Position numbers and translations under genes: made by a program. This document shows positions 24,730 to 57,286 of a stretch of DNA of 64,000 nt, piece after piece. The stretch covers positions 51,942 to 115,941 of the forward strand of contig WFPC01000015.1 in assembly GCA_015487785.1 (NCBI GenBank). Direction: 5' to 3'. The first letter of the stretch is position 1; every line of letters starts with the position of its first letter. The notes below the pieces were generated by a model that was given only the letters and a program-made list of their open reading frames with translations, was not told the DNA's origin and made no database searches. The DNA comes from Gammaproteobacteria bacterium (GTDB lineage: Bacteria > Pseudomonadota > Gammaproteobacteria > S012-40).

Positions 24730-24762
24730 CGGGACGACTCCAGGTAAAACTTTTCCAGCTCC

Positions 24763-25110: not shown

Positions 25111-27549
25111 ATGCGAGAGAAACTAGTCCTGATCGGAAATGGTATGGCCGGGGTGCGCACCATCGAAGAACTGTTGAAGATAGCGCCCGAGAAGTACGAC
25201 ATCACCATTTTTGGCGCTGAACCCTATGGTAACTACAACCGCATCCTGTTGTCGCCGGTGCTGGCCGGTGAAAAGACCATAGAAGAAATCATGCTCAATG
25301 ACGAGCAGTGGTATCGCGACAACGGTATTCGCCTGCACAAGGGCAAGAAGGTGATCAAGATCGATCGCCGCCAGCGCAAGGTGATCGCCGAGGACGGCAC
25401 CGAGGAATCCTATGATCGCCTGTTGCTGGCCACCGGCTCCAACCCGTTCATTATCCCCGTGCCAGGCAACGACCTGGAGGGCGTGATCACCTTCCGTGAC
25501 ATCCATGATGTGGACCGCATGTTGGAGGCCACAAGGAAACACAAACACGCGGTGGTCATCGGCGGTGGCCTGTTGGGGCTGGAAGCGGCCAATGGGCTGA
25601 TGCAGCACGGCATGCATGTCACCGTGGTGCATATCACCGACACCTTGATGGAGCGCCAGTTGGACAAGGAGGCCGGTGCTCTGCTGCAGAAATCCCTGGA
25701 AGAACGCGGCATGAATTTTCTCATGTCCCATGTCACCGAGGCAATTCTCGGGGAGGAGCGTGTCAAGGGCGTGCGCTTCGCCAACGGCCTGGAGATTGCC
25801 GCCGACATCGTGGTAATGGCGGTGGGCATTCGGCCCAATATGGAACTGGCTCTCAATGCCGGCATCTATTGCGAGCGTGGCGTGGTGGTCAACGACACCA
25901 TGCAGACCTATGATCCGCGCATCTACGCCGTTGGTGAATGCGTGCAACATCGCGGGGTCACCTATGGACTGGTGGCGCCTCTGTTCGAACAAGCCAAGGT
26001 GGCGGCCAATCATCTGGCCGAATACGGCATTGGCCGTTACGAGGGCTCGGTAACGTCCACCAAGCTTAAGGTGACCGGTATCGACCTGTTCTCCGCCGGC
26101 GATTTCATCGGTGACGAGACCACCGAAGAAATCGTGATGAAGGATGCCGCCCGCGGTGTCTACAAGAAAGTGGTGCTCAAGGACAATCGCGTGGTCGGCG
26201 CGGTGATGTATGGCGATACCGTGGATGGTGCCTGGTATTTCCAATTGTTGCGTGACAAGACCGATGTCAGCGATATCCGCGACCATCTGATGTTGGGGCA
26301 GGCCCACCTGGGTGACGCGGGCCATGGCGGGCAGAATGCCGCCGCGGCCATGAGTGACGACATGGAGGTTTGTGGCTGTAACGGAGTTTGCAAGGGCGAT
26401 ATCGTCAAGGCCATTACCGAAAAGAAACTGTTTACCCTGGACGATGTGCGCGCACACACCAAGGCATCGGCCTCGTGTGGTTCCTGTACTGGTCTGGTGG
26501 AGCAGATTCTGGCTTCCACCCTGGGCGGGGATTACTCCGCCGCTCCCCATGCCAAGCCCCTGTGCAAATGTACCGACTACACCCATGATGAGGTGCGCGC
26601 CGCCATCAAGGAGCAAAAACTCACCTCCATCCGTGCGGTGCAGAAATTCCTCGAATGGAAAACCCCCGACGGTTGTCATGTCTGCCGCCCGGCGCTCAAT
26701 TACTATGTGATCGCCGCCTGGCCGGCGGAGGCCAAGGACGACCCACAGTCCCGCTTTATCAACGAGCGCGCGCATGCCAACATCCAGAAAGATGGCACTT
26801 ACTCGGTGGTGCCACGTATGTGGGGAGGGCTCACTTCACCCAAGGAATTGCGCGCCATCGCCGATGTGGTGGAGAAGTTCAATATTCCCACGGTGAAAGT
26901 CACCGGTGGCCAGCGCATCGATCTTCTGGGTGTACGCAAGGAAGACTTGCCAGCGGTCTGGAAAGACCTCAACGATGCAGGCATGGTTTCCGGTCACGCC
27001 TATGGCAAGTCCTTGCGCACGGTAAAGACGTGTGTGGGTCAGGAATGGTGCCGTTTTGGAACCCAGTTCTCCATGTCCATGGGGGTGAAGCTGGAGCAGA
27101 TCACCTGGGGTTCATGGATGCCGCACAAGTTCAAGATGGCGGTATCCGGTTGTCCACGCAACTGTGCTGAGGCGACCATCAAGGACTTTGGTGTGGTGGC
27201 GGTGGAATCCGGCTGGGAACTGCATGTGGGTGGCAATGGCGGCGTGAAGGTGCGCGCCACCGACCTGTTGTGCAAGGTGGCTACCGAGGAAGAGGTGATC
27301 GATCACTGCCTGGCATTCATTCAGCTCTATCGCGAAGAGGCTCATTATCTGGAACGCACCGCGCCCTGGATCGAGCGCGTGGGCCTGAGCTATGTCAAGC
27401 AGCAAATCGTGGAAAATGAAGAGCGCCGCAAGCAATTGCGCGATGCCTTCCTCGAGTCGCAGAAATACATGCAGAAGGATCCCTGGAAGGAGCGCGCCAG
27501 TGAGGGCGTGGAGAAACATGAGTTCGTACCAATCAAGCAGGTGAGTTGA
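25111..27549 (+). CDS. nirB: NAD(P)H-dependent nitrite reductase large subunit
   Basis: 812 aa. N-terminal FAD/NAD Rossmann (LVLIGNGMAG, VVIGGGLLGLE), BFD-like 2Fe-2S region (CGCNGVC...CGSC), C-terminal siroheme/4Fe-4S sulfite-reductase-like domain. Confidence 0.95.
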   Translation: MREKLVLIGNGMAGVRTIEELLKIAPEKYDITIFGAEPYGNYNRILLSPVLAGEKTIEEIMLNDEQWYRDNGIRLHKGKKVIKIDRRQRKVIAEDGTEESYDRLLLATGSNPFIIPVPGNDLEGVITFRDIHDVDRMLEATRKHKHAVVIGGGLLGLEAANGLMQHGMHVTVVHITDTLMERQLDKEAGALLQKSLEERGMNFLMSHVTEAILGEERVKGVRFANGLEIAADIVVMAVGIRPNMELALNAGIYCERGVVVNDTMQTYDPRIYAVGECVQHRGVTYGLVAPLFEQAKVAANHLAEYGIGRYEGSVTSTKLKVTGIDLFSAGDFIGDETTEEIVMKDAARGVYKKVVLKDNRVVGAVMYGDTVDGAWYFQLLRDKTDVSDIRDHLMLGQAHLGDAGHGGQNAAAAMSDDMEVCGCNGVCKGDIVKAITEKKLFTLDDVRAHTKASASCGSCTGLVEQILASTLGGDYSAAPHAKPLCKCTDYTHDEVRAAIKEQKLTSIRAVQKFLEWKTPDGCHVCRPALNYYVIAAWPAEAKDDPQSRFINERAHANIQKDGTYSVVPRMWGGLTSPKELRAIADVVEKFNIPTVKVTGGQRIDLLGVRKEDLPAVWKDLNDAGMVSGHAYGKSLRTVKTCVGQEWCRFGTQFSMSMGVKLEQITWGSWMPHKFKMAVSGCPRNCAEATIKDFGVVAVESGWELHVGGNGGVKVRATDLLCKVATEEEVIDHCLAFIQLYREEAHYLERTAPWIERVGLSYVKQQIVENEERRKQLRDAFLESQKYMQKDPWKERASEGVEKHEFVPIKQVS

Positions 27550-27550
27550 A

Positions 27551-27859
27551 ATGGCAGAGTGGATTGAAGTAGGCCCGCTGGACGAGATTCCCCGTCTAGG
27601 GGCGCGGGTGATCAAGGGCGATGAAGGCAATATTGCCATATTCCGTACTTCCAGCGATGAGGTTTTCGCCCTTGCAGACCGATGTCCGCACAAGGGTGGC
27701 CCCCTGTCCCAGGGTATCGTGCATGGTAACAGCGTGACTTGTCCCCTGCACAACTGGGTCATTGGTTTCGAGGATGGTGAAGCCAGGGCCCCGGACGAGG
27801 GTTGTACAGCCACCTATCCGGTGAAGGTCGAGAACGAGGTTGTTTTCATCCAACTCTGA
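27551..27859 (+). CDS. nirD: Nitrite reductase small subunit (Rieske-like)
   Basis: 102 aa. CPHKGGPLSQG...CPLHNW Rieske-type motif pair. Confidence 0.9.
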   Translation: MAEWIEVGPLDEIPRLGARVIKGDEGNIAIFRTSSDEVFALADRCPHKGGPLSQGIVHGNSVTCPLHNWVIGFEDGEARAPDEGCTATYPVKVENEVVFIQL

Positions 27860-27883
27860 GAACACCGACAGGAGTGCCGAGAT

Positions 27884-30076
27884 ATGCTATTTGGACGCAA
27901 AGACAGAAAACCCATCAAACTTCCCGGCAAGGACCCGGAGGTGAAGGAATGGCGCTATACCACCTGTGGCTATTGTTCCACCGGTTGTTCCATTGAGGTG
28001 GGTGTCAACGAGCAGGGCGAGGGTGTGCGCGCCCGTGGTGTGGGGGGTGCCCATGTCAATCGGGGAAAATTATGCCTGAAAGGGATCTTCGAGCACGAAT
28101 TGTTCAGCTCCGCTGGGCGCGGTACCACACCCCTGATGCGCGACAAGACCTTCGAGGATTTTCGCCAGGTTTCCTGGGATCAGGCCTTGGATCGTACCGC
28201 GGCCGAAATCAAGCGTATCCAAGAGACCTATGGGCGTGACAGTTTCGCCATCGTCTCTACCGGCCAGATTCTCACCGAGGAATTCTATACCTTGGGCAAG
28301 CTGGCCCGTGGTGTGATCGGTACCAACAACTACGATGGCAACACGACCTTGTGCATGGCCTCGGCGGTGTCCGGCTACAAGCGTTCCTTTGGCTCCGATG
28401 GCCCACCCGGTTGTTACGACGATTTCGAACACACCGAATGCCTGCTGGCCATTGGTTCCAACCTGCCAGAGCAGCATCCGATCATTTTCTGGCGCCTACG
28501 TCAGGCGTTAGAGAAGCGCAAGTTTCCCGTCATCGTGGTGGATCCGCGGGTAACCATGTTTGCCCAGATGGCCGATATGCATCTGCCCATCACGCCGGGA
28601 ACCGATGTGGTGTTGCTCAACAGCCTGGCCCACGTAATCCTGGACGAGGGCCTGGAGGACCGGGCCTATATCGAGGCCCACACCAGTGGTTTCGACGAGT
28701 TCGCCCAATTGGTGGCGCAATACGATCCGGTGAGCGCCTCGCGTATCTGTGGCATCGACGAGGACACCATTCGCAACGTGGCCCGGCTCTATGCCAAGGC
28801 CGGGGCGGCCATGACCATCTGGACCATGGGTATCAACCAGAGTACCCATGGCTCCGATGGCGTGGTGGGTATCAACAACCTCAATCTCATCACCGGCAAT
28901 ATCGGCAAACCCGGTGGTACCTCGCTGTCCATCACCGGACAGTGTAACGCCATGGGTACCCGCGAGTGGTCGTCGTGTTCGGGGCTGCCCGGTTATCGTT
29001 TGCTGGAGAACGAGCAGCATCGCAAGGAAATCGCCGAGTTCTGGGGTATCGACCCGGAGTTCTTCCCCAAGAAACGCGGCCTGTTCCAGACCGATATTTT
29101 CCCTGCCATCGAAACCGGCCAGATCAAGGGACTGTGGCTGGTGGCCACCAATCCCATGACGTCCATGCCCAATACGGCACGTATTCGCAAGACCCTGGAG
29201 AAACTGGAGTTCCTGGTGGTGCAGGATGCCTACCAGGACGTGGAGACCACCGAATACGCCCACGTTTACCTGCCGGCGGCCATCTGGGCGGAAAAAGAAG
29301 GTGTCATGACCAATACCGAGCGGCGGGTCAACTACATCAGCAATGTGGTGAAACCCTATGCCGATTCCAAGCCGGATCTGTGGATCTTCAACCAGATGGC
29401 CCAGCGTTTCGAGCAGGGGCGCAAGATCCGCTTTCCGGAAACCGCCCGCGAGGTGTTCGACGAAATGCGCCAGTTGTCCAAGGGGCGCCTGCTGGACATC
29501 TCCGGCATGACCCACGAAAAGATCCAGCAGAATCGCGGCATCCAGTGGCCTATGCCGGAAGGCGCCGAGAGTGGCTCGCCACGGCTGTATACCGATGGCA
29601 AGTTCCAACATCCCGATGGTCGCGCCAAACTGATTCCTCTGCCGTTCGTAGACAACAACGAGCGACCCGACGAGGAGTATCCTTTCTGGCTCAACAGTGG
29701 CCGGGTGGTGGAGCATTTTCACACTCGTACCCGTACCGGCAAGATCGGCAACCTCAACAAGTTCAGCCCTACCCCCTACATGGAGATGAATCCGGATGCG
29801 GCGCAGGAGCTGGGTATCGAGCACATGAGTTATGTGCGCCTGGTCTCGCGCCGGGGCGATGCCGTGGTGTTGGTACAACTGACCCATCGGGTACCGCACA
29901 ACATGGTCTTTATTCCCTTTCATTTCCATGAATGCGTCAATCGCCTCACCCTGGGATTGCTCGATCCCTATTCCCGGCAACCGGCGTTCAAACAGAGCGC
30001 GGTGCGAATCGAGCCCCTGACTGAGGAAGAGAAAGACATGGCGGCACAGATCAATCGCGCCGCCCGCGCCTATTGA
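27884..30076 (+). CDS. nasC: Assimilatory nitrate reductase catalytic subunit, short NarB-like form (molybdopterin oxidoreductase)
   Basis: 730 aa. N-terminal CGYCSTGC-x..-C 4Fe-4S motif and a Mo-bisMGD fold. There is no twin-arginine signal, so the enzyme is cytoplasmic. There is no C-terminal 2Fe-2S/NifU-like extension. Confidence 0.9.
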   Translation: MLFGRKDRKPIKLPGKDPEVKEWRYTTCGYCSTGCSIEVGVNEQGEGVRARGVGGAHVNRGKLCLKGIFEHELFSSAGRGTTPLMRDKTFEDFRQVSWDQALDRTAAEIKRIQETYGRDSFAIVSTGQILTEEFYTLGKLARGVIGTNNYDGNTTLCMASAVSGYKRSFGSDGPPGCYDDFEHTECLLAIGSNLPEQHPIIFWRLRQALEKRKFPVIVVDPRVTMFAQMADMHLPITPGTDVVLLNSLAHVILDEGLEDRAYIEAHTSGFDEFAQLVAQYDPVSASRICGIDEDTIRNVARLYAKAGAAMTIWTMGINQSTHGSDGVVGINNLNLITGNIGKPGGTSLSITGQCNAMGTREWSSCSGLPGYRLLENEQHRKEIAEFWGIDPEFFPKKRGLFQTDIFPAIETGQIKGLWLVATNPMTSMPNTARIRKTLEKLEFLVVQDAYQDVETTEYAHVYLPAAIWAEKEGVMTNTERRVNYISNVVKPYADSKPDLWIFNQMAQRFEQGRKIRFPETAREVFDEMRQLSKGRLLDISGMTHEKIQQNRGIQWPMPEGAESGSPRLYTDGKFQHPDGRAKLIPLPFVDNNERPDEEYPFWLNSGRVVEHFHTRTRTGKIGNLNKFSPTPYMEMNPDAAQELGIEHMSYVRLVSRRGDAVVLVQLTHRVPHNMVFIPFHFHECVNRLTLGLLDPYSRQPAFKQSAVRIEPLTEEEKDMAAQINRAARAY

Positions 30077-30093
30077 GGGAGTGAGAGAAACGC

Positions 30094-32055
30094 ATGTACG
30101 AAATACGTAAAGACGAACCGGACTATGCCTTCATTCCCGATGTGGATACCCCGCCCACCAACCAGTGGGGGGATCCCATCGAAACCGTGCCGGAAAATGA
30201 TGCAGTGGTCGGACAGCCGCTGGAGATCAATGGCGAACCGGTGGTGGGCACTAATCCCAACCGCTACAAGCAACACGGTTTTCATTTCACCGCCGACAAC
30301 TGTATCGGCTGTCATGCCTGTGAGGCGGCGTGCAGTGAGAAGAACAATCTGCCGCCGCACCTGAGCTTTCGTTCGGTGGGTTTTCTGGAGGGCGGCAGCT
30401 ACCCGGCCTATAAGCGCTTGAATATTTCCATGGCCTGCAACCATTGCGACAACCCTGTCTGCCTCAAGGGGTGTCCCACCCGGGCCTATACCAAGTATCC
30501 CGAGTACGGCGCGGTGATTCAGGATCCGGATACCTGTTTCGGATGTGGTTACTGCACCTGGGTCTGCCCCTACAATGCGCCGCAACTGGATCCGGTGGAA
30601 GGCCAGGTATCCAAGTGCAACATGTGCATCGACCGTCTGGAGGTGGGGCTCAAGCCCGCCTGTGCGGCGGCTTGCCTGGGAGGGGCGCTGGATTTTGGCC
30701 TGATCGAGACCACGCCCCCCAACCGGGAACAGGCCAAGATCAAGATTCCCGGTTTTCCCGATCCCAGCATCACCCATCCCAATATCCGTTTTCAGCAGGT
30801 CAAGACCCTGCCACGGGACATGACCCGGGCCGACACCATGCCCTTGCACTACATGAACGATGAGCAGGGGCGCGGTGAGGAATACAAACCCAAACCGTTG
30901 GTGAAGGAGCGCAAGAAGGAGTGGAACTGGCGGGATCTCAGTTCCCGAGAAAATCCCCTGGTGGTGTTCACCCTCATTTCCCAGGCGGTTGTGGGCGGTT
31001 TCCTGGCGCTTTTCCTCGGACCCTTGCTGGGTCTGGAGGAACTCTCCCGTGAGGCTCATCCGGTGGCTTATGCCGCGGCCTTGTTGCTGATGTTGGGCCT
31101 GCAGGGCATTGCCCTGGTGGTGTCCACCATGCACTTGGGCAAGCCGCATCGCTTCTACCGCGCGTTCAACAATCTCAAGTATTCCCCGGTGAGCCGGGAG
31201 GTGGCCTCCCTGGCGGTGTTCTTCACCTTCTTTGCGCTCTACACCGTGCTCAATACCGGTTTGTTCAATTGGCTGCCGGAGTGGTTGCTGGGCGGGCTGA
31301 GCTTTATCATCGGCCTGGCGGCGGCATTCTCGGGCCTGGTCTTCATCTATGCCATGCACAAGATCTATCGTATCCCGGCAAGACCTTTCTGGAATCACTG
31401 GCAAGTGTTGACCAGTTTCTATGGCAACATGCTCAGCCTGGGAGGGCTGTTGGCGGGGCTGGTGTTCGCCACCGCCCTGGTGTTGCAGGGTGAATCCTTC
31501 GCCGGGCTCATGGGGATGCTGGCTTTGCCCATGCTGCTGGGTCTGGCCATGGAGGCCTATGGCCTCTATCGCCATGGCAAGGACATGGATGCACGGGGCG
31601 GCGAGGGCGCCGCGGCACATCTGCGCCAGCAGACCCATTTTGGATATACCGCGCGCGTGCGTCACATCGGCCTGGGGCTGGGCATGCTCCTGGTGGCCGT
31701 GCTGGGGTTCGCCGGGGCTGATGGCTGGCTGGGGTTGGCGGGCTGGCTGCTGACGGCCCTGGTGATGATTGCCACGGCGGTGATCGGTCGCGCTCTGTTC
31801 TATGTGCTGGTGATCCCCACCACCATGCCGGGCGCCTTCTTCTGGCGCAATCCGGGCTTCCAGGAACATGCCCGGGAGACGGGTCTGGCACGCATGCCCC
31901 AGGTGGGGGTGGTGCCCAAGACCGATTATCACCACGAGCATCTGGCGCGTGCCAAACGCGAACTCAAGGAAGAGTGGGAGGAAATCCGCCGTATCGGTTA
32001 CAAGGCCGCGTTCAAGCGGGCCTGGCAGTTCGCCATCACCCGCCTGGATTATTGA
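30094..32055 (+). CDS. Fusion protein: DmsB-like 4x[4Fe-4S] ferredoxin domain + DmsC-like 8-TM membrane anchor
   Basis: Four Cys clusters (CIGCHACEAAC; CNHCDNPVCLKGCP; CFGCGYCTWVCP; CNMCIDRLEVGLKPACAAAC) in residues about 70-200. Then about 8 predicted TM helices (residues about 290-600). No signal peptide. Confidence 0.75.
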   Translation: MYEIRKDEPDYAFIPDVDTPPTNQWGDPIETVPENDAVVGQPLEINGEPVVGTNPNRYKQHGFHFTADNCIGCHACEAACSEKNNLPPHLSFRSVGFLEGGSYPAYKRLNISMACNHCDNPVCLKGCPTRAYTKYPEYGAVIQDPDTCFGCGYCTWVCPYNAPQLDPVEGQVSKCNMCIDRLEVGLKPACAAACLGGALDFGLIETTPPNREQAKIKIPGFPDPSITHPNIRFQQVKTLPRDMTRADTMPLHYMNDEQGRGEEYKPKPLVKERKKEWNWRDLSSRENPLVVFTLISQAVVGGFLALFLGPLLGLEELSREAHPVAYAAALLLMLGLQGIALVVSTMHLGKPHRFYRAFNNLKYSPVSREVASLAVFFTFFALYTVLNTGLFNWLPEWLLGGLSFIIGLAAAFSGLVFIYAMHKIYRIPARPFWNHWQVLTSFYGNMLSLGGLLAGLVFATALVLQGESFAGLMGMLALPMLLGLAMEAYGLYRHGKDMDARGGEGAAAHLRQQTHFGYTARVRHIGLGLGMLLVAVLGFAGADGWLGLAGWLLTALVMIATAVIGRALFYVLVIPTTMPGAFFWRNPGFQEHARETGLARMPQVGVVPKTDYHHEHLARAKRELKEEWEEIRRIGYKAAFKRAWQFAITRLDY

Positions 32056-45925: not shown

Positions 45926-48900
45926 TTACGGTGGCCCGCCGGACAGGTTCAGGGTCAGGGTGACGCCAGCGGTGAACAGCTCACGGCTGAGATCGTCACG
46001 CAGCAGATAGGCCAGGCTCAGCAGGGCATCGCTGCTGTCCGCGTCGCTGATGTAGAGCAGGGCGGTGCCCTCGCCCGGTTCGAGGCTGCCGTCGCTGAGA
46101 TAGGCCGGATCGGTTACCGATTCCAGGGCGGCCTGGCTGTCGGACGCTTGGAAGGCCAGCACACTCAGCGGGCGGTTGGAGAAATTGGCGATGATCAGGC
46201 CGAAGCGGCTGCCGGCCTTGAGCTGACCATCGGCGATCAATGGGTCGGCCAGGGCCCAGCGGCCGATGATGTTGCCCAGCGATTCGGTGGCGTAGACCGA
46301 CAAGGTGTTGACCACCAGCGAATCGCGAATTCGTGCGCGCACGGTGACGATGCCACTGTAGCTGGAGCGCAAGCGGAATGTCGCCTGGCCGTCGAGCGTG
46401 GTCACCTGGGTGGCGCTGAGAACGGCCTCGCCGGCGATGATTTCCAGCTCCACCACGCTGCCATCGAGAATGGGGGTGGAGGGGTCGGCGGCGCGGGTGT
46501 AGATGCGGATCAATGTTTCCTCTATGCCGTTATTGAGGATTACATTGGGGCTGGCGGCCATGACCAGGGCTACCGGCGCCCTGGGGTCGGCGCTGATTAC
46601 CAGGGCCTGGCTGGCCTCCACGCCATCGAAGCGCGCCCGCACCGTGATGGTGCCCGGGGCCACCGTGGTCAGCCGGCCGGAGCCATCCACGGTATTGTCG
46701 ATACTGGCCAGATTCTGGCCACCATCATCGAGGCTCCATGTGGCGGCTCGGGTGATGTCCTGGGCGCTGCCATCGGCAAACCGGGCAATGGCGGTGAGCG
46801 GCAGGGTAACGCCATAGGGCAGGCTGTCCAGCGCGGGCTGGATCTCGATGCTCTGCAAGGGGGCATCGGTAAGGCTCAGGTAACTGCTGGCCACTATCTC
46901 ACCCAGGCTGGCGTCGATGCGCACCGGATTGGCGGCGGCGGCCAGGGCACTGACCTGGCCCTGTTCACCCTCACCATTGGCCACGACGGCCAGTGCCTCG
47001 TCGGCGGAAACCCACAGGACCTGTTCGGTGAGATCCTGGCTGCTGCCATCGGAGAACTGGCCTCGGGCACGCAGGCCCAGGCGGGTGCCTGGGGCGAGCA
47101 CGGCGCTGGCAGGCTCGATGCTCAATTGCTGCAGGGTGGCATCGCTGATCTCCACCACATAGGTACTGGTCACGCCGGTCAGCGAGGCGGTGATGTTGAC
47201 CGTGCCGGCTTGTAGGGCGGTGAGCCTGCCAGTGGCATCGATTACCGCCAGGGCATCATCGGAAGAAGACCAGTCCACCTGTCCGGTGGCCAGTTGCTGG
47301 CTGCCGTCGGTGTAATTGGCCAGGGCCCGCAGGCGGGTAGCGGTACCGGCGGCAAGCCGGTCGGTGTCGCCCTCGATATTGAGTGAAATCAATCGGGCCG
47401 GTGTCACCTCGATGGTAGTGGAAGCGCTGATGCCAGCAAAGCTTACCGTCAACTGGGTCTGACCCTCGTTCTGGGCGCGCAGATTCTGCAACGAGCGGCT
47501 GCTGCCGGCCGTCACCACAATGGTGTCATCGGCCAGGCTCCAGGCAACCTGGGTGCTCAGATCCTGTTTGACGTTGTTGGAGTAGATACCGGTCACCGCG
47601 ATGGCGAACTGGCTGCCCTTGGCCACGGCAGGGTTGTTTGGCGTGATTTCTAGCGCCACCAGTTGTTCCTGCCCGATGGTGAGTTCGATGCTGTCACTCA
47701 GCCCGGCGGTGGCCGCTGTGACGCGCACCGTGCCCGCTCCCACGGCAGTGGCCAGGCCGGCCTGGCCCAGACCATTGTCGATGTCCAGCACGGCGGGATT
47801 GTCGCTACTCCAGTTGGCCTCGTTGCTGAGATCGCGGCTGCTGCCGTCGCTGTAGATGCCCATCACGCGCAGTTGCTGGCTGTTGCCATTGACCCAGGGC
47901 AGCAGGGGGGGCTGGATTTCCAGGCGCTGGAGGACCGCTTGGCTGATCTCCAGTACGGCCTCGGCGTTGTAACCCCGGTAACTGGCACTGAGAATGCCAC
48001 TGCCCGCCTGCAGCGCAAACAGCAGGCCCGGGGCATCGCCGGCCGTGTTGATCTGGGCCAGGCGGGTGTCGCCCAGACGCCACAGGGCCTCGGCGGTGAG
48101 ATCCTGGCGACTGCCGTCGGTATACACCCCCAGCAGACGCAATTGCTGTTGATCACCGGCGGCCAGACGTAATAGGGGTGGCTCGATCAAGACCCGCGCC
48201 AGGGTGACCGGCGGCGGATCCAGGACGATGCTGGCGCTGATACCGTCCAGCGTGGCGCTGAGGGTGACCTCTTGTCCTTCACTGGGTCGTGTAACCCACA
48301 CACCTCGAGGGTCGAGAATGATTTCCACCTGTGCGGAAGAACTCTGCCAGCGCACTTGCCGGGTGATATCGCTGCGGCTGGCGTCGCTGAAGATACCGGT
48401 GGCGGTAATGGGAATCAGGTCGGATTCGTCGTCGAGACCTTGTGCCGGCAATGTGATCTCGATGTCCTGGAGGCTGGCCGCCGTTACCTCGATGGCGAGC
48501 GTGGCTTCCAGTTCATCCAGGCGGGCCACGACTTGGGCAGTGCCTGTGGCCAAGGCCTGCAACAGGCCGGCATTCTCGCCAGTGGGCACGATCTCCAGCA
48601 CGTTGGTATCGCCGGACGACCAAATCACCGTGTCGCTGAGATCACGCTTGCTGTCGTCGGAATAGATGCCGATGGCACGCACCACCTGTTGTGTGCCAGC
48701 GGGCATTTGCCGGCTGTCGATTTCCACCGTCAGAGCGGTCAGGCGTGCCTCGCTCACCCGGAAGTCCAGGCGGCTCTCGATGCCGTCCAGGCTGGCGCGC
48801 ACGCTGGCCTGACCGCTGGCGCGGGCGCTCAACAGGCCCGGCTGACGGACGTTGTCGATGGCGATGATGTCGGGGTCGGAGGAAATCCAGCTCACCCGCG

Positions 48901-50194
48901 CAGTGATGTCGCTGCGCGAGCCGTCGGAATAGACGCCGGTGGCGCTCAGGCGCAGGGTGTCGCCTGTAGGCAGGACCAGGGTTTCGCTGGAGAGCAGAAT
49001 CTCGTTCAATATCGCTGGTGTCACGCTCACCGGCAGACGGTCATAGAGGCCATCGAACAAGGCAACCACCTCGGTGCTGCCGGGGGCTATGGCCTGTAGT
49101 TGGCCGCTGTTGGCGTCTACGGCCACCACGTCGCTGTTCTTGCTGGTCCAGACTACATCGCGGGTGATGTCCTGCACGCTACCATCACTGAAGTGGCCCA
49201 GGGCTTTGAGAGCGAGTGCCATGCCGGCAGCGAGTTCACTGCGCTCGGCCACGATGTCGATGGACTCGATCCGGGCTGCGCTGATTTCCAGCGAGAGCGT
49301 GTCGCTGATCCCGTCGACCGCGGCTTGCACGCTCACCGTGCCCGGCTGACGCGCATACAGCCAGGTTCGCCCGTCTTCGATCTCGATGCTGGCCGAGGCA
49401 GGCGGGTTCACGCTCCAGCTTGCCTGGCTGCTGAGATCCACCTGCCTGCCATTGTCATACGTGCCGGTGAGCACGATGGGGCTGCGAGTGCCACTGGCGA
49501 TGCGCTCTTCGTCCAGGGAAAGCGTGAGTCGGCTCAAGGTGTTCGCTACGATTTCGATGGGCACGCTGACACTCAGGCCCGGGTCACCGGTATAGCGGGC
49601 CACCAGCTCACCGCTGCCGGGCTGACGGGCTTGCAAGGTATTGTCCGGAGCCAGGTCGGCCAGGCCTTCCGGTTCGATACGCCAGTCTATCTGTTGTTCC
49701 AGGGCTTGCTTGCTGCCATCACTGAAAATGCCGACGGCATTCAGCCGGGTCTGATTTCCCTGGGCCAGGTTGATGACCACTGGGCTGATCTGGAGTTGCT
49801 CCAGGCTGGCATCGGTCACCTGGACCAGGGCATCGGCCTGGATCACACCCAGAGCGACGCCGATGCGGCCTTCTCCGGGCTCGACCGCACGGAACTGGCC
49901 GGGTTTTGTCAGCGGCTGGATTATTCCGTTGTCGGGCAGGATCCACTGCACCTCATGGGAAATATCACGCCGGCTGTCGTCCTGATAGATGCCGGTGGCG
50001 GTCAACTGGAAATGGGTGCCCTTGGCCACCTTGCCGAGTTTGGGCTTGAGCTGGATCTTCAGCAACAAGGGCGAAGTAGCGCTGGTGCCCAGGGGAGCAT
50101 TCATGCGCTCGCAACCCGTCAGCACCAGCACCATCAACGCGATGAGCAGGCCTATTCTGAACAGGGGCGTTAGCGGCAGGTATGGCATGGACAA
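45926..50194 (-). CDS. Giant surface lipoprotein with about 13 tandem bacterial Ig-like (Big_2) domains
   Basis: 1422 aa. Lipoprotein signal LMVLVLTGC. Repeating approx. 85-90-aa units with the core pattern L.ATG.YSDGS..D.T..V.W.SSD. C-terminal approx. 250 aa non-repetitive. Confidence 0.8.
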   Translation of the reverse strand: MSMPYLPLTPLFRIGLLIALMVLVLTGCERMNAPLGTSATSPLLLKIQLKPKLGKVAKGTHFQLTATGIYQDDSRRDISHEVQWILPDNGIIQPLTKPGQFRAVEPGEGRIGVALGVIQADALVQVTDASLEQLQISPVVINLAQGNQTRLNAVGIFSDGSKQALEQQIDWRIEPEGLADLAPDNTLQARQPGSGELVARYTGDPGLSVSVPIEIVANTLSRLTLSLDEERIASGTRSPIVLTGTYDNGRQVDLSSQASWSVNPPASASIEIEDGRTWLYARQPGTVSVQAAVDGISDTLSLEISAARIESIDIVAERSELAAGMALALKALGHFSDGSVQDITRDVVWTSKNSDVVAVDANSGQLQAIAPGSTEVVALFDGLYDRLPVSVTPAILNEILLSSETLVLPTGDTLRLSATGVYSDGSRSDITARVSWISSDPDIIAIDNVRQPGLLSARASGQASVRASLDGIESRLDFRVSEARLTALTVEIDSRQMPAGTQQVVRAIGIYSDDSKRDLSDTVIWSSGDTNVLEIVPTGENAGLLQALATGTAQVVARLDELEATLAIEVTAASLQDIEITLPAQGLDDESDLIPITATGIFSDASRSDITRQVRWQSSSAQVEIILDPRGVWVTRPSEGQEVTLSATLDGISASIVLDPPPVTLARVLIEPPLLRLAAGDQQQLRLLGVYTDGSRQDLTAEALWRLGDTRLAQINTAGDAPGLLFALQAGSGILSASYRGYNAEAVLEISQAVLQRLEIQPPLLPWVNGNSQQLRVMGIYSDGSSRDLSNEANWSSDNPAVLDIDNGLGQAGLATAVGAGTVRVTAATAGLSDSIELTIGQEQLVALEITPNNPAVAKGSQFAIAVTGIYSNNVKQDLSTQVAWSLADDTIVVTAGSSRSLQNLRAQNEGQTQLTVSFAGISASTTIEVTPARLISLNIEGDTDRLAAGTATRLRALANYTDGSQQLATGQVDWSSSDDALAVIDATGRLTALQAGTVNITASLTGVTSTYVVEISDATLQQLSIEPASAVLAPGTRLGLRARGQFSDGSSQDLTEQVLWVSADEALAVVANGEGEQGQVSALAAAANPVRIDASLGEIVASSYLSLTDAPLQSIEIQPALDSLPYGVTLPLTAIARFADGSAQDITRAATWSLDDGGQNLASIDNTVDGSGRLTTVAPGTITVRARFDGVEASQALVISADPRAPVALVMAASPNVILNNGIEETLIRIYTRAADPSTPILDGSVVELEIIAGEAVLSATQVTTLDGQATFRLRSSYSGIVTVRARIRDSLVVNTLSVYATESLGNIIGRWALADPLIADGQLKAGSRFGLIIANFSNRPLSVLAFQASDSQAALESVTDPAYLSDGSLEPGEGTALLYISDADSSDALLSLAYLLRDDLSRELFTAGVTLTLNLSGGPP

Positions 50195-51209: not shown

Positions 51210-52305
51210 ATGGAAATCAATCCGATTCAGAATCGTATCAAGGACTTACTCGAGCGCAGCGGTGCGCTGAGGAGGTATCTTTGACTATGTCGGCAAGCGC
51301 GAACGCCTGCAGGAGGTGGTGCGCGAGCTAGAGGACCCGGCGGTCTGGAACGAGCCGGACAAGGCACAGGCCCTGGGACGGGAACGGGCCCAGCTCGAGA
51401 CCGTTGTCGATGGCCTGGACGAGATCCAGCGTCGCCTCGACGAGGCTGCGGAATTGCTGGATCTGGCGGCCGAGGAAGGCGACGAGGACACCCTGGCGGT
51501 GGTGGCCGAAGACCTCGATCAGGTGGAACGCCAGGTAGCGCAACTGGAGTTCCAGCGCATGTTCTCCGGTGAAATGGATGCCAGCAACGCCTACCTGGAT
51601 ATCCAGGCGGGTTCCGGTGGCACCGAGGCGCAGGACTGGGCCGAGATGCTGCTGCGCATGTATCTGCGCTGGGGGGAGAGGCACGGTTTCAAGACCGAGT
51701 TGATCGAGGTTTCGCCGGGCGAGGTGGCCGGGATCAAGAGTGCCACCATTCATTTCCAGGGCGACTACGCCTTCGGCTGGCTGCGCACCGAAACGGGTGT
51801 GCACCGATTGGTGCGCAAATCGCCGTTCGACTCGGGCAACCGGCGGCACACCTCGTTTGCCTCAGTATTCGTCTCGCCCGAAGTGGACGACGACATCGAC
51901 ATCGAGATCAACCCGGCAGACCTGCGTATCGACACCTACCGAGCCTCGGGTGCCGGTGGCCAGCACGTCAACCGTACTGACTCGGCGGTGCGCATCACCC
52001 ACTTGCCCACCGGTATCGTGGTGCAGTGCCAGAACGACCGCTCCCAGCACAAGAACAAGGCCCAGGCCATGAAACAGCTCAAGGCCAAGCTCTATGAGCT
52101 GGAAATGCTCAAGCGCAACGAGCAACAACAGGCACTGGAGGAAAGCAAGGCCGACATCGGCTGGGGCAGCCAGATTCGCTCCTATGTGCTGGATCAGTCG
52201 CGCATCAAGGACCTGCGCACCGGCGTGGAAACGGGCAACACCCAGGCCGTATTGGATGGTGAACTCGACCCTTTCATCGAGGCCAGTCTCAAGAGTGGTC
52301 TATAA
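51210..52305 (+). CDS. prfB: Peptide chain release factor 2 with programmed +1 ribosomal frameshift (frame 0 51210-51281, frame +1 from 51283)
   Basis: Leader [24 protein letters not shown] ends at CTT TGA C (51279-51285), preceded by AGGAGG. The +1 frame continues [22 protein letters not shown]...[16 protein letters not shown] (GGQ motif) to the stop at 52305. Confidence 0.93.
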
Positions 52306-52334
52306 CTATTTGAAATTCATCTGGAAATATTTCA

Positions 52335-53845: not shown

Positions 53846-54277
53846 TTACTGGAATTCGATCACGGCCATGTTTCCGTCGCGGATGATGTCGGCGACGGTG
53901 TACTTGTCCAGCACTTCCATGAAGCGGCGGGTGGCTTCCCCCAGCACGGGCTTGAGCATGCAGGCGGGTTCTACCACGCACTTGGCCTTTTCCCTGTCGA
54001 AACACTCAACGATGTTGAAATTGGGCTCGGTGGCGCGAACCACCTCCCCAATATTGATCTCCTCGGCAGGGCGGGCCAGCCGGATGCCGCCACTCTTGCC
54101 GCGGGTGGTCTGGATGAATCCTTTCTGGGCCAGGTGGTGCACAACCTTTACCAAATGGTTACGCGAAATGTCGTAATATTCGGCGATTTCGGTAATAGTG
54201 GCCTTTTCCCCGGGATCCTTGAGTGACAGATAGGCCAGAACCCTCAAGGTATAATCCGTATAAAGTGTCAGTTGCAT
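53846..54277 (-). CDS. nsrR: Rrf2-family NO-responsive transcriptional repressor NsrR
   Basis: Start at MQLTLYTDYTLRVLAYL, as in E. coli NsrR (MQLTSFTDYGLRAL). Three C-terminal Cys (CFDREKAKCVVEPAC). The track ORF is extended by 42 codons upstream. Confidence 0.85.
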   Translation of the reverse strand: MQLTLYTDYTLRVLAYLSLKDPGEKATITEIAEYYDISRNHLVKVVHHLAQKGFIQTTRGKSGGIRLARPAEEINIGEVVRATEPNFNIVECFDREKAKCVVEPACMLKPVLGEATRRFMEVLDKYTVADIIRDGNMAVIEFQ

Positions 54278-54407
54278 GTCATTCACTCGTCCTGTAATGC
54301 TCGATATATACACGCCGGGCGTGCAGATCTTCCCTGATCCATAAACAACACTAATAATGTTGATTAAACCACATAATTGATTCCGGTGCAGCTTTTTATT
54401 CATGCAC

Positions 54408-54420
54408 AGATAATATATCT
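54408..54420. promoter_or_regulatory. Palindrome AGATAATATATCT in nsrR/glbN divergent promoter region (candidate operator)
   Basis: Inverted repeat AGATA-ata-TATCT, 35 nt upstream of the glbN ATG. A second IR GTGCA-N13-TGCAC lies at about 54386-54408. Confidence 0.3.
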
Positions 54421-54455
54421 TACAGGATTCGATAAACTTGAACAGGAGAAGTGTG

Positions 54456-54824
54456 ATGAGCCAATCCCTTTACGAGCAGATCGGTGGCGAGGCCGCGGTG
54501 AACGCGGCGGTGGACATTTTCTACCGCAAGGTGCTGAGTGATGAGCGCATCAATGGGTTTTTTGAAGGCGTGGACATGGACAAGCAAGCGGCCAAACAAA
54601 AGGCCTTTCTGACCATGGCGTTTGGCGGGCCACACAATTATACTGGCAAGGACATGCGGGAAGGTCATGCCCACCTGGTGGCGCGTGGACTCGACGACAG
54701 TCACTTCGATGCGGTGATGGAAAACCTGGCGGCCACGCTCAAGGAACTCAAGGTGCCCGATCAGCTCATTGCCGAGGCGGCGGCCATCGCCGAGAGCACC
54801 CGCAACGACGTATTGGGGCGTTAA
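54456..54824 (+). CDS. glbN: Truncated hemoglobin, group I (trHbN / GlbN-like)
   Basis: MSQSLYEQIGGEAAVNAAVDIFYRKVLSDERINGFF...QKAFLTMAFGGPHNYTGKDMREGHAHL closely matches cyanoglobin GlbN and Mycobacterium HbN. AGGAGA SD sits 6 nt before the ATG at 54456. Confidence 0.9.
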   Translation: MSQSLYEQIGGEAAVNAAVDIFYRKVLSDERINGFFEGVDMDKQAAKQKAFLTMAFGGPHNYTGKDMREGHAHLVARGLDDSHFDAVMENLAATLKELKVPDQLIAEAAAIAESTRNDVLGR

Positions 54825-54843
54825 ACAGCACGGGGGACGGACT

Positions 54844-55812
54844 TTGGGTTATACGATTCATTACAACGGCAAAGACTATGATTGTGGCGACACGGAAACC
54901 GTACTCGATGCCTTGTTGCGCCATGGTGAGTCCGTTCCCTATTCCTGTAAGGCCGGCGTGTGTCATAGCTGTCTGATGCAGGCCCTCAAGGGGCAACCCA
55001 CCGAGGCTTCCCAGGCCGGCCTCAAGGAGACGCTCAAGCAACGCAATTTCTTCCTGCCCTGCAGTTGCGTACCCCAGGTGGACATGACGGTGGCCCTGGC
55101 CGGCGAGGCCGAACTGCATCATGTCAGCGCCGAGGTGATCGACAAGACACCGCTCAATGCGCATATCATGCGCGTGCGTCTCAGGCCCGAAGGCGAATTC
55201 AGCTACCACGCGGGGCAATTCGTCAACTTCTTTCGTGACGAGAGCGTGGTACGCAGCTACTCCCTGGCCAGTGTGCCGGCGCTGGAGGATTTCCTCGAGC
55301 TGCACGTGCAACGCCTGCCTGGTGGCCAGTTGAGTCCATGGATTCACGACCAGCTTGCGGTGGGTGACAAGGTCATGCTCAGCGAAGCCCTGGGTGATTG
55401 TTTCTATACCCGCAGGGATCCCGCACAGCCCTTGCTGTTCATCGGCACCGGCTCTGGTCTGGCGCCGCTCTACGGCATTGTGCGCGATGCCCTGCAACAA
55501 GGCCATAGGGGCCCTATTTATCTCTATCATGGCACCCGCAGCCGTGAAGAGATCTACCTGGTGGATGAATTGCGAGAACTGGCCGCCGCGCACGACAATG
55601 TACATTACCAGCCCTGCCTGTCGCGCGAAGAGGCGGCGGGTTTTGCCCATGGACGTGCCAACGAGATTGCCCTGGAGCGCCATCCCGACCTCAAGGGTTG
55701 GCGGGCCTATCTGTGTGGCAATCCCAACATGGTAGAAGCCAGCAAGAAGAAAATCTTCCTCGCCGGGGCGGCTCTCGGCGACATCTTTGCCGACGCCTTC
55801 GTGCACAGTTGA
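54844..55812 (+). CDS. 2Fe-2S ferredoxin / FNR-family flavin oxidoreductase
   Basis: TTG start at 54844 after a GGGGGA SD; the track ORF begins earlier and overlaps glbN. N-terminal plant-type 2Fe-2S (CKAGVCHSC...CSC), RSYSLAS flavin motif, GTGSGLAP NAD(P)H motif. Confidence 0.8.
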   Translation: MGYTIHYNGKDYDCGDTETVLDALLRHGESVPYSCKAGVCHSCLMQALKGQPTEASQAGLKETLKQRNFFLPCSCVPQVDMTVALAGEAELHHVSAEVIDKTPLNAHIMRVRLRPEGEFSYHAGQFVNFFRDESVVRSYSLASVPALEDFLELHVQRLPGGQLSPWIHDQLAVGDKVMLSEALGDCFYTRRDPAQPLLFIGTGSGLAPLYGIVRDALQQGHRGPIYLYHGTRSREEIYLVDELRELAAAHDNVHYQPCLSREEAAGFAHGRANEIALERHPDLKGWRAYLCGNPNMVEASKKKIFLAGAALGDIFADAFVHS

Positions 55813-55820: not shown

Positions 55821-56822
55821 ATGGAAGCCGTCAAACGCCACGGATCCTGGCTGCTCGGCATGCTCTTGTTGCTCACCCTGGGACTGGCGAAGGCCGACGA
55901 ACGCCCGTTGCCGGATTTCGCCACCTGGCTGGAGGCACTGCGCGCCGAGGCCCTGGCCCAGGGAATCTCCCTTCGTACCCTGGACGAGGCCCTGACGGGC
56001 GTCAAGCCCATCGAGCGCGTCATTCGCTTCGATCGCAACCAGCCGGAATTCAAGCTCACTTTCGCACGTTATTTCCAGCGGGTGGTCTCCCGTGCACGAG
56101 TGGAAAAGGGGCGTAAGCTGCTGCTCGAACATCGGGCCTTGCTGCAACAGATCCAGTCCCGTTACGGAGTACAGCCGCGGTTTGTGGTGGCCTTGTGGGG
56201 CATGGAGACCGATTTTGGCCGTCTCACCGGTGGTTTCAAGGTGATCGATGCCCTGGTGACCCTGGCCTACGATCCCAGGCGTTCAGGCTATTTTCGTCGC
56301 CAATTGCTCGATGCCCTGCGCATCATCGACCAGGGGCATGTGCGTGCTGCCGAGATGACCGGTTCCTGGGCAGGCGCCATGGGGCAGACCCAGTTCATGC
56401 CGTCCACCTTCCTGCGTTATGCGGTGGACTTCGACGGTGATGGCCGCAAGGACCTGTGGCACAGCACTGCCGATGCCCTGGCCTCCGGTGCCAATTATCT
56501 GGCCCGCATGGGTTGGCGTGACGACCAGACCTGGGGGCGGGAAGTGCGCCTGCCGGCGGATTTCGACCCCGGCCTGTTCGGCCTGGAGCAACGCAAGCGG
56601 CTCTCGCAATGGCAAGCCCTGGGAGTACGTCGCATCGACGGGCGGGACCTGCCGCGGCGGGACCTGCTGGCCTCACTCATCCAGCTCGATGGTGACACGG
56701 ATAAACCGCGTCATTTTCTTGTCTACGATAATTATCGTGCCATCATGAAATGGAACAAGTCCCATCACTTTGCCACCTCGGTGGGCATCCTGTCCGACAG
56801 AATCGGCCGCCGGCGTCTCTGA
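55821..56822 (+). CDS. mltB: Lytic murein transglycosylase B
   Basis: Start at MEAVKRHGSWLLGMLLLLTLGLAKA (signal peptide). Conserved MltB core (ALWGMETDFG, MGQTQFMPSTF). Confidence 0.9.
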   Translation: MEAVKRHGSWLLGMLLLLTLGLAKADERPLPDFATWLEALRAEALAQGISLRTLDEALTGVKPIERVIRFDRNQPEFKLTFARYFQRVVSRARVEKGRKLLLEHRALLQQIQSRYGVQPRFVVALWGMETDFGRLTGGFKVIDALVTLAYDPRRSGYFRRQLLDALRIIDQGHVRAAEMTGSWAGAMGQTQFMPSTFLRYAVDFDGDGRKDLWHSTADALASGANYLARMGWRDDQTWGREVRLPADFDPGLFGLEQRKRLSQWQALGVRRIDGRDLPRRDLLASLIQLDGDTDKPRHFLVYDNYRAIMKWNKSHHFATSVGILSDRIGRRRL

Positions 56823-57286
56823 TGGGTTTATCCAAAACATTAAATCAAATGGGTAATGGGTTGAAAATATTTAGCTTTATCCTGATTGCCGTGCTTCTTC
56901 TGGTGACTGCGTGTAGCCGTGGTCCGGAAAATCGCGAGGAGGACGTGGTGGCCGTCCGCAAGCTCATGCAGGAACGCGCCGAGGCCATTGCCAACAAGGA
57001 TATCCAGGCCTATGCGCGCCTTATCCATCCCGAATACAACGATGGCCGCAATACCCGGGAAATGGTCATCGAAGACATGCGCCATGCCTTTGAAACCTAC
57101 GACAGCATTGCCTTTAGCTATCAGAAAGCGCCGGTGGAGCTGAAAATGAATACCGCGCGGGTGGTGCAGCGCATCATGTACCGGGTGAACGGCGACAAGA
57201 CTCTTCACGATCACGAAATACTGATTCTGCGCAAAAGCGACGGGCGCTGGATGATTTCCGGTGGCATCACCACGGGTTTGTTCTAG
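56822..57286 (+). CDS. Lipoprotein with NTF2-like / SnoaL-like (DUF4440-type) fold
   Basis: The ATG overlaps the mltB stop (TGATG). Signal MGLSKTLNQMGNGLKIFSFILIAVLLLVTAC. ..DGRWMISGG C-terminus typical of NTF2-like proteins. Confidence 0.55.
   Translation: MGLSKTLNQMGNGLKIFSFILIAVLLLVTACSRGPENREEDVVAVRKLMQERAEAIANKDIQAYARLIHPEYNDGRNTREMVIEDMRHAFETYDSIAFSYQKAPVELKMNTARVVQRIMYRVNGDKTLHDHEILILRKSDGRWMISGGITTGLF

Follow-up and report, generated by a model that had tools for sequence, protein, structure and literature searches.

A conserved cassette with a probable role in nitric oxide detoxification: an NsrR-like regulator, a truncated haemoglobin and a [2Fe-2S] flavoprotein reductase

Within a 64-kb stretch of gammaproteobacterial DNA (64,000 nucleotides; the window), we identified a three-gene unit in which a gene for an NsrR-like repressor of the Rrf2 family is divergent from a gene for a group-1 truncated haemoglobin (GlbN), and the gene following glbN encodes a [2Fe-2S] flavoprotein reductase. 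Judged from comparative sequence analysis, the unit most likely detoxifies nitric oxide (NO). The same arrangement has been published for Legionella pneumophila, where an nsrR<>glbN-lpg2536 locus was described and Hmp-like NO oxidation was proposed (Rodionov et al, 2005; PMC1274295, Table S4), a proposal repeated in a later review (Gardner, 2012; PMC3820574). The novelty implied by an earlier, sequence-only reading of the window is therefore lost; the observation on which that reading was built was confirmed, and its interpretation was partly supported.

Gene layout and protein identities

The coordinates of the three genes were confirmed (Table 1). As the sequence-only reading had proposed, genes with Rrf2/NsrR and group-1 globin matches diverge from a 178-bp spacer, and a ferredoxin-flavin-NAD(P)H reductase belongs to the transcription unit of the globin: the reductase begins 19 nt after the glbN stop codon, and a simple scan found no terminator-like site either between the two genes or 3' of the reductase. 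Both glbN and the reductase gene have their own ribosome-binding site, that of glbN being AGGAGA located 6 nt 5' of its ATG. A simple scan of the spacer for a strong sigma-70 consensus found none. A longer open reading frame overlapping the globin (54769-55812) was rejected as an artefact of a mechanical ORF rule, because homologues and the public gene call begin at 54844.

The gene for an SLT_2 lytic transglycosylase begins 8 nt past the reductase stop codon; given the closely spaced gene calls and the lack of a terminator, it and the following DUF4440 gene may be co-transcribed with the reductase in the window. Both were rejected as members of the conserved module because homologues were present in 0 of the 80 related genome loci; beside relatives of the cassette they were found only in a syntenic sister locus (L166). 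A link to nitrate assimilation was likewise rejected. The sequence-only reading had placed a nitrate/nitrite assimilation locus next to the cassette, but these genes occupy about 21.5-32 kb of the window, about 22 kb away, and uvrB, a copper ATPase gene, serS, a gene for a giant Big_2 protein, prfB and lysS lie between.

Table 1. Features of the cassette and its surroundings (positions in the window).
Feature	Position	Strand	Size and basis
nsrR-like Rrf2-family repressor	53846-54277	minus	143 aa; Pfam, NCBIfam, solved structures; public gene call agrees
Divergent promoter region nsrR-glbN	54278-54455		178 bp, AT-rich; from sequence
Candidate NsrR operator TCATGCACAGATAATATATCT	54400-54420		matrix built from homologous loci
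glbN, group-1 (N-type) truncated haemoglobin	54456-54824	plus	122 aa; Pfam Bac_globin and solved structures
Three-domain reductase, TTG start	54844-55812	plus	322 aa; Pfam Fer2, FAD_binding_6, NAD_binding_1
Reductase, plant-type [2Fe-2S] domain	about 54865-55074	plus	
Reductase, FAD-binding domain	about 55144-55407	plus	
Reductase, NAD(P)H-binding domain	about 55438-55746	plus	
SLT_2 lytic transglycosylase	55821-56822	plus	gene call
DUF4440 gene	56822-57286	plus	gene call

The regulator matches the Pfam Rrf2 family (PF02082, 3.5e-39). Its top NCBIfam model is NsrR (NF008240), although its 146.5 bits fall short of the curated equivalog threshold of 182, and RirA comes second with 123.6 bits. 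The closest solved structure is NsrR of S. coelicolor (5N07, 2e-15), and in the alignment to it Asp8 and three cysteines of the regulator (C-x7-C-x5-C) coincide with the [4Fe-4S] ligands. On these matches the regulator is NsrR-like.

GlbN matches the Pfam family Bac_globin (PF01152, 7e-19), and its best solved structures all belong to group 1, namely a Tetrahymena truncated haemoglobin (3aq5, 4e-37), cyanoglobins (6e-36) and THB1 of Chlamydomonas (4xdi, 4e-28). Group-1 structures as a whole matched at 4e-37 to 2e-18, whereas HbO of group 2 reached only 7e-5; by these comparisons GlbN is a group-1 (N) truncated haemoglobin with a 2/2 fold. Its key residues are Gly10-Gly11, Tyr23 (B10), Phe36, Gln44 (E7), Lys47 (E10), Gln48 (E11), Gly57-Gly58 and His71 (F8); all are invariant in 142 distinct homologues except His71, which is present in 141. 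Tyr23, Gln44 and Gln48 map onto Y25, Q46 and Q50 of the Tetrahymena protein, and this Tyr-B10/Gln-E7/Gln-E11 pocket has been associated with stabilising O2 and with dioxygenating NO in the trHbN proteins of Tetrahymena and mycobacteria (Gardner, 2012; PMC3820574).

The reductase carries a C-x4-C-x2-C...C ferredoxin motif, an RxYS motif for FAD, a GTGxGxxP motif for the nucleotide and, C-terminally, the aromatic residue F319; in three-domain [2Fe-2S]-FNR reductases this aromatic stacks on the flavin. Invariant within the family are Cys35/40/43/73/75, R137-x-Y139-S140, T202-G-x-G-L-A-P208, C291-G292 and F319. An AlphaFold model (pLDDT 93.4) matched the folds of 5OGX, 7C3A, 4WQM and 1KRH, the best being the P450 reductase GcoB (5OGX, 2e-31, 32% identity), and GcoB was also the nearest relative in sequence (5.8e-45), followed by CarAd, T4moF and BenC. 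The sequence-only reading had assigned the protein to the type that serves as the reductase module of Hmp. This holds for the FAD/NAD half, which is homologous to that module (1gvh, E 1e-12, 23% identity, rmsd 3.0 Å over 246 columns), but not for the whole protein, which scores 71 bits against the Hmp model (NF009805, cut-off 432), has GcoB as its nearest relative and contains a [2Fe-2S] domain, whereas Hmp has no Fe-S domain. The score was also under the cut-off of every named oxygenase-reductase equivalog (BenC, AntC, MmoC and PRK05713), for example 212 versus 338 for PRK05713, 132 versus 430 for BenC and 125 versus 500 for MmoC. By domain content and homology the protein is a three-domain reductase of the GcoB/BenC type, with an extra Fe-S domain and other than the Hmp type.

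Conservation of the gene pair and of its operator

Conservation of the gene pair was surveyed from both sides, using the best 80 homologue loci of the reductase in reference genomes (78 testable for the upstream gene) and the 80 closest globins in metagenomes (76 testable for the downstream gene). A globin lay directly upstream on the same strand in 72 of the 78 reductase loci (~92%; median gap about 22 nt), and a reductase lay downstream of 59 of the 76 globins. At most loci, which span diverse lineages, 7-30 nt separate the two genes, and among the surveyed loci the reductase has no other conserved neighbour. Carriers include Tenderia, Methylococcus, Methylobacter, Methylomonas, Gallionella/Sideroxydans and Chromatiales, with Methylococcales heavily represented, and the surroundings of the cassette are otherwise unrelated. 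Since the gene order repeats in dozens of unrelated genomic contexts, its conservation is far beyond chance. This conserved neighbourhood strongly supports a predicted joint function of globin and reductase.

A divergent nsrR was present at 37 of the 80 reductase loci and at 37 of 73 metagenome globin loci, and the full order nsrR<>glbN-reductase was found at 35 genome and 33 metagenome loci. Wherever a regulator is linked to the cassette in the surveyed loci, it is of the NsrR type and accompanied by an NsrR palindrome. An adjacent nsrR is missing from about half of the related loci, and 17 of the 76 metagenome globin loci have no reductase. The globin can also be missing: the syntenic sister L166 contains nsrR (86% identity) and an intact reductase (79% identity) with the globin absent, the L021 and L024 loci have kept nsrR and an intact reductase and lost the globin, and in L021, L024 and L069 the intact reductase stands beside a decayed globin remnant.

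Candidate operators were compared with the published NsrR palindrome gATGyAT-N5-ATrCATc, mismatches being counted against ATGyAT-N5-ATrCAT. A plain consensus scan of the window was at chance level (5 matches versus 5.7 expected) and uninformative alone; a comparative test and a matrix built from homologous loci were therefore used instead. Among nsrR-linked relatives, 29 of 35 carry the motif 5' of glbN with at most one mismatch, compared with 0.5% of shuffles, and in 18 of the 35 the palindrome is perfect. Where nsrR is not linked, 11 of 38 relatives carry the motif at the same stringency, and 24 of the 38 have no site within two mismatches of the consensus. The site upstream of Legionella glbN, GATGTATTTcAAATACATC, agrees with the motif of the window's relatives. 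These boxes support the predicted NO-responsive control of the cassette.

In the window itself, the matrix identified TCATGCACAGATAATATATCT, which lies 37 nt 5' of the glbN ATG. With 15.8 bits it is the best site in the whole 64 kb (the runner-up has 11.4 bits), and of 2000 shuffled versions of the spacer, 6 scored as high. It is nevertheless degenerate, with two mismatches, and scores below every training site of the matrix, the sites of relatives having at least 19.9 bits; on the core score it reached 14.1 bits versus 30.5 for the Legionella site. The sister locus L166, whose NsrR box scores 23.8 bits, shows no conservation of the window's box at the equivalent position, and TCATGCACAGATAATATATCT consequently has no phylogenetic footprint. 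By eye, TCATGCACAGATAATATATCT overlaps a -10-like GATAAT. The NsrR control asserted by the sequence-only reading thus finds support in the regulator and in the boxes of relatives, but the window's own box is weak.

Proposed mechanism, known systems and alternative explanations

On balance, we lean towards the view that the cassette is an NO-inducible two-component nitric-oxide dioxygenase. According to this model, in the absence of NO the NsrR-type repressor, carrying an Fe-S cluster, would bind the palindrome in the spacer and repress glbN and the reductase gene, and probably its own gene as well. NO would damage the Fe-S cluster and so derepress the glbN-reductase operon. GlbN with ferrous haem would then bind O2, stabilised by Tyr-B10, Gln-E7 and Gln-E11, and convert NO to nitrate, which would leave the haem ferric; the co-translated reductase would regenerate ferrous GlbN by transferring single electrons from NAD(P)H through FAD and the [2Fe-2S] cluster to the haem. 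Three elements of this model are inferred: docking of the reductase on the globin, NO dioxygenation as the chemistry, and a response of the regulator to NO. The dioxygenase model is supported by the operon structure, the conserved linkage, the NsrR motif, the invariant pocket and cofactor motifs, the precedent of GcoB and the prior prediction, and it is weakened by the degenerate operator, the sub-cut-off score of the regulator and the loci that have no nsrR, no globin or no reductase.

The closest known system is the Legionella operon, which has the same divergent nsrR as well as an upstream NsrR palindrome, and in which the gene for a cyanoglobin-type trHbN is followed by one for a 'ferredoxin reductase'; the window reproduces this gene order, with glbN and the reductase on one strand at short spacing. 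The likeness rests on the published description of lpg2536, a bioinformatic prediction in which the protein appears only as a 'hypothetical ferredoxin reductase' (PMC1274295). The window differs in its much weaker operator and in its host, an uncultured gammaproteobacterium from a metagenome. A literature search for experimental studies of the operon, of lpg2536 or of a reductase cognate to trHbN yielded nothing beyond the 2005 prediction and reviews.

Hmp is regulated by NsrR in many bacteria and combines a globin with an FNR-family FAD/NAD(P)H module that converts NO and O2 to nitrate. However, Hmp is a single polypeptide in which a 3/3 globin is fused to the FAD/NAD module and electrons pass directly from FAD to haem, with no Fe-S domain, whereas the window encodes a 2/2 globin and a reductase as separate polypeptides, and the additional [2Fe-2S] domain of the reductase is likely to be the last carrier of electrons. 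Calling the unit a split, two-gene flavohaemoglobin is accordingly a functional analogy only. With GcoB, BenC, T4moF and CarAd the reductase shares an N-terminal plant-type [2Fe-2S] domain followed by FAD and NAD(P)H domains, although it scores far under the BenC, MmoC and AntC cut-offs. The partners of those proteins are P450s or Rieske/diiron oxygenases of aromatic catabolism, whereas the family of the window reductase is linked almost exclusively to trHbN. GcoB, a [2Fe-2S]-FAD-NADH protein, directly reduces a haem protein whose gene lies next to its own (PMC6021390). In the raphidophyte NR-trHbN fusion, a flavin domain of the FNR superfamily serves to re-reduce a truncated haemoglobin for the dioxygenation of NO (PMC3820574). 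THB1 of Chlamydomonas resembles GlbN as a group-1 protein with Lys at E10. It is also reportedly linked to nitrate reductase (Sanz-Luque et al, 2015). THB1 and the raphidophyte fusion differ from the cassette in being eukaryotic, in drawing electrons from the diaphorase portion of an assimilatory nitrate reductase, and in having neither a [2Fe-2S] domain nor NsrR. A literature search for fusions of truncated haemoglobins with reductases found nothing usable.

The globin and its reductase could also act together on other nitrogen species or on O2, with ferrous trHbN reducing hydroxylamine or nitrite, or with the globin serving as an O2 buffer or delivery protein that a met-haemoglobin reductase of its own maintains in the ferrous state. 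Haemoglobins of cyanobacteria and plants can reduce hydroxylamine in vitro, and a role of this kind would be most relevant to methanotrophs, which convert ammonia to hydroxylamine. The abundance of the cassette in Methylococcales is in keeping with it, as are the many nsrR-less loci without a recognisable site and the transcription of a Methyloprofundus group-1 truncated haemoglobin, which is very high, apparently constitutive and among the ten highest of all genes without imposed NO stress (PMC8788690). We nonetheless regard another substrate as rather unlikely, in view of a linked regulator that is always of the NsrR type with an NsrR palindrome and a haem pocket of the composition tied to NO dioxygenation. 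It is very unlikely, in turn, that this regulator is a sensor of iron or Fe-S status or of redox state (an Rrf2 protein like RirA, IscR or RsrR) and the operon lies outside the NO stimulon. The sub-cut-off NsrR score, the RirA score and the cysteine spacing, which resembles that of RirA, would suit such a sensor; against it, NsrR tops both the NCBIfam and the solved-structure matches, and the palindrome 5' of glbN in orthologous loci, which the Legionella site also fits, matches the independently published NsrR motif.

The loci without a globin bear on the role of the reductase, which might not be dedicated to the globin at all and might instead be an NsrR-regulated donor for another partner, or have its own activity, for instance in Fe-S repair or in reducing another NO-handling protein, the globin being frequent but dispensable. 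L166, with nsrR, a strong box and an intact reductase but no globin, fits this explanation, as do the reductases beside decayed globins in L021, L024 and L069 and the fact that the nearest solved relatives serve oxygenases and P450s. We judge it distinctly improbable when set against the direct adjacency and short gaps at most loci and the lack of any other conserved neighbour; the globin-less cases could moreover be decaying operons or use a globin encoded elsewhere. A related possibility is that NsrR control centres on the reductase and not on the globin, the reductase being an NO-inducible donor with further partners or its own NO-related activity and trHbN its commonest client. This is suggested by the persistence of the reductase with nsrR in the globin-deleted L166, L021 and L024 loci and by the strong box; we consider it unlikely.

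Implications for truncated haemoglobin function

How truncated haemoglobins are re-reduced in vivo is a recognised gap. Progress has been said to hinge on identifying their cognate reductases (Smagghe et al, 2008; PMC2323109), and the Legionella operon has been presented as the main genomic clue (Gardner, 2012; PMC3820574). Conceptually the window locus is nothing new, being a further example of a widespread, predicted design; what the survey adds is the very wide distribution of the cassette and its tight linkage (about 92% adjacency), so that cultured, tractable carriers are now available for a 20-year-old prediction. If true even in its conventional form, the NO dioxygenase model would give a bacterial truncated haemoglobin its first natural cognate reductase, widespread in methanotrophs and in iron and sulfur oxidisers, and would bear on the handling of NO and N-oxides by methanotrophs and iron oxidisers.

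The globin and the neighbouring reductase

As the sequence-only reading had it, an nsrR-like gene is divergent from a gene for a group-1 (N-type) truncated haemoglobin (trHbN), glbN, and a reductase gene follows without a terminator; gene calls and a terminator scan bore this out. The glbN stop lies 19 nt from the reductase start, and the scan found no terminator-like hairpin either between these two genes or 3′ of the reductase. The nsrR-like gene really starts at the ATG opening MQLTLYTDY; the mechanically called ORF begins too early, at an ATG further upstream. Its product matches Pfam Rrf2 (3.5e-39), and its top NCBIfam model is NsrR (146.5 bits, below the curated cut-off of 182; RirA, 123.6 bits). 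The closest solved structure is Streptomyces coelicolor NsrR, with whose [4Fe-4S] ligands Asp8 and three cysteines align.

Features of the window
Feature	Position	Strand	Remarks
PP2C phosphatase-Ser/Thr kinase fusion	21540-23255	-	nitrate/nitrite assimilation-like cluster (21540-32055)
MFS transporter	within ~21.5-32 kb		same cluster
NirB	25111-27549		same cluster
Molybdopterin oxidoreductase	27884-30076		730 aa; same cluster
Fused 4Fe-4S dicluster (Fer4) and DmsC-anchor protein	30094-32055		same cluster
Big_2 (bacterial Ig-like) protein	45926-50194	-	1422 aa; many repeats; lipoprotein-like N-terminal signal
prfB	51211-52305	+	classic programmed +1 frameshift site AGGAGG TAT CTT TGA C, ~51271-51285; 329-aa ORF called from 51316 is the downstream frame only
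Second-ranked NsrR-matrix match	52302-52322		ATAACTATTTGAAATTCATCT; 11.4 bits; prfB-lysS spacer, ~1.5 kb from nsrR
nsrR-like gene (Rrf2 family)	53846-54277	-	143 aa
nsrR-glbN spacer			178 bp; AT-rich
Candidate NsrR site	54400-54420		TCATGCACAGATAATATATCT; 37 nt 5′ of glbN ATG
glbN	54456-54824	+	122 aa; AGGAGA ribosome-binding site
Reductase gene	54844-55812	+	322 aa; TTG start; GGGGGA ribosome-binding site
SLT_2 lytic transglycosylase gene	begins 8 nt past reductase stop
DUF4440 gene	after SLT_2 gene

By sequence, GlbN is assigned to the group-1 truncated haemoglobins. Among solved structures it matches the Tetrahymena protein (4e-37), cyanoglobins (~6e-36), Chlamydomonas THB1 (4e-28) and Mycobacterium tuberculosis HbN (2e-18), and group-2 HbO at only 7e-5. 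Mapping onto Tetrahymena Y25/Q46/Q50 gives a pocket of Tyr23 (B10), Gln44 (E7), Lys47 (E10), Gln48 (E11) and His71 (F8). Across 142 distinct homologues the distal residues do not vary, and 141 retain His71. GlbN has neither the mycobacterial pre-A extension nor the E10 His and C-terminal His behind the bis-histidyl and covalent haem of cyanobacterial GlbN.

The reductase, first read as being of the flavohaemoglobin (Hmp) type, is not of that type. It combines Fer2, FAD_binding_6 and NAD_binding_1 domains, whereas its likeness to Hmp covers the FAD/NAD half only (1e-12; 23% identity), the extra Fe-S domain belonging to the reductase here. Its nearest relatives are instead reductases of oxygenase and P450 systems: by both sequence and fold (AlphaFold model, confident at pLDDT 93.4) the top match is GcoB (5OGX; 5.8e-45; Foldseek 2e-31; 32% identity), followed by CarAd, T4moF and BenC. 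The C-x4-C-x2-C...C cluster ligands, RxYS, GTGSGLAP, Cys-Gly and the C-terminal Phe are invariant in 33/33 homologues. Because GcoB, a [2Fe-2S]-FAD-NADH protein, directly reduces a neighbouring haem protein, a P450 (PMC6021390), the proposed electron path from reductase to globin haem has a precedent. Globin and reductase make up a flavohaemoglobin analogue rather than a flavohaemoglobin split into two genes. The nitrate/nitrite assimilation locus, described as adjacent, actually lies ~22 kb off with housekeeping genes between. Its membership is unusual, the Fer4-DmsC fusion being atypical for assimilatory nitrate reductases.

Conservation and loss of the pair

Co-occurrence of globin and reductase, put forward in the sequence-only reading as a check, held in both directions. 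When the reductase alignment was scanned against one genome per species, the best 80 loci (47-57% identity) had a globin immediately 5′ on the same strand in 72 of the 78 with sufficient upstream sequence (57-85% identity to the window globin; median gap ~22 nt). Conversely, with the globin as query against metagenome contigs, 59 of 76 testable loci among the best 80 had the reductase directly 3′. Flanking genes vary (in Candidatus Tenderia, for example, the pair is flanked by prfC and by a gene for a type-II secretion ATPase), and SLT_2 and DUF4440 genes accompany none of the best 80 related genome loci. Upstream of the pair, 37/80 genome and 37/73 testable metagenome loci have a divergent nsrR-like gene. 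From these neighbourhood scans, therefore, the conserved module is glbN plus reductase, with nsrR optional.

Throughout, conservation of the globin markedly exceeds that of its partners. Four Methylobacter loci (L052, L074, L077, L084) hold a second trHbN copy (76-79% identity to the window globin) ~2 kb 3′ of the reductase on the opposite strand. Several reductase-less metagenome loci represent one lineage, with tandem duplicated globins (L140, L141, L164) beside an L-aspartate-oxidase-like gene, named by eye from its N-terminal sequence. Almost the same cassette occurs in MAGs that bear the labels Chthonomonadales, Blastopirellula and Phycisphaeraceae (L022, L030, L053, L082; globin 68-75% identity, reductase only ~50%), reflecting either horizontal transfer or mis-binned contigs.

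Of the six genome loci without a globin in this position, at least two (L021, L069) retain fragments of a deleted globin, as L024 probably does. These short remnants (L021:3652-3963, L024:3639-3998, L069:3724-3936) lie 5′ of intact reductases and mark independent losses; that of L021, MFDSLFNRLGGEAADIAETTRSDVLGR, joins the globin N- and C-termini through an internal deletion. The closest syntenic relative, L166 in the sister genome GCA_054045945.1, shares the context prfB-lysS...SLT_2-DUF4440-crp-truD-parE (nsrR 86%, reductase 79% identity to the window). It retains an intact reductase and a strong NsrR box (AGATTTATCCAGAATACATAA, 3534-3554, 23.8 bits), and no globin gene lies between nsrR and reductase; its place is taken by ~390 nt (3477-3868, syntenic to window 54278-54843) that are unrelated in sequence and in part GC-rich. 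The public call of this reductase (278 aa) lacks Fer2 because its start was mis-called. L166, L021 and L024 therefore show that the reductase can outlast its adjacent globin. Such operons are either in decay, or served by a globin encoded elsewhere, or their reductase has a further role. The cassette itself may have a hydroxylamine- or oxygen-related role, in line with its enrichment in methanotrophs and with very high trHb transcription in Methyloprofundus (PMC8788690).

Proposed control by NsrR

NsrR control, also part of the sequence-only reading, stood for the family and less securely for this locus. The independently published motif gATGyAT-N5-ATrCATc (PMC1274295) occurs 5′ of glbN in perfect form in 18 of 35 nsrR-linked relatives and with at most one mismatch in 29, compared with 11/38 loci without adjacent nsrR and only 0.5% of shuffled controls. 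With a matrix built from sites in related loci, the candidate site 5′ of glbN scored highest in all 64 kb. At 15.8 bits, however, it falls under every training site (lowest, 19.9 bits) and its score was reached by 6/2000 spacer shuffles. Control of glbN and reductase by NsrR is therefore well supported across the family, and plausible but weaker here. The second-ranked match is probably due to chance.

A predicted and widespread cassette

The operon and its proposed role are not new. Rodionov et al (2005) described Legionella pneumophila glbN-lpg2536 (<nsrR) with the site GATGTATTTcAAATACATC, and proposed an Hmp-like oxidation of NO by the cyanoglobin together with a 'hypothetical ferredoxin reductase' (PMC1274295); the likeness of lpg2536 to the reductase here is at the level of that published description. 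A review (Gardner, 2012; PMC3820574) repeated the case as evidence that ferredoxin reductases feed electrons to truncated haemoglobins, and Smagghe et al (2008) stressed cognate reductases as the missing piece (PMC2323109). Our literature search found no experimental follow-up of the Legionella-type operon, lpg2536 or a cognate trHbN reductase. The initial interpretation was correct in essence, with three details wrong, and the window locus is another case of a predicted, widespread, uncharacterised NsrR-linked trHbN-reductase cassette.
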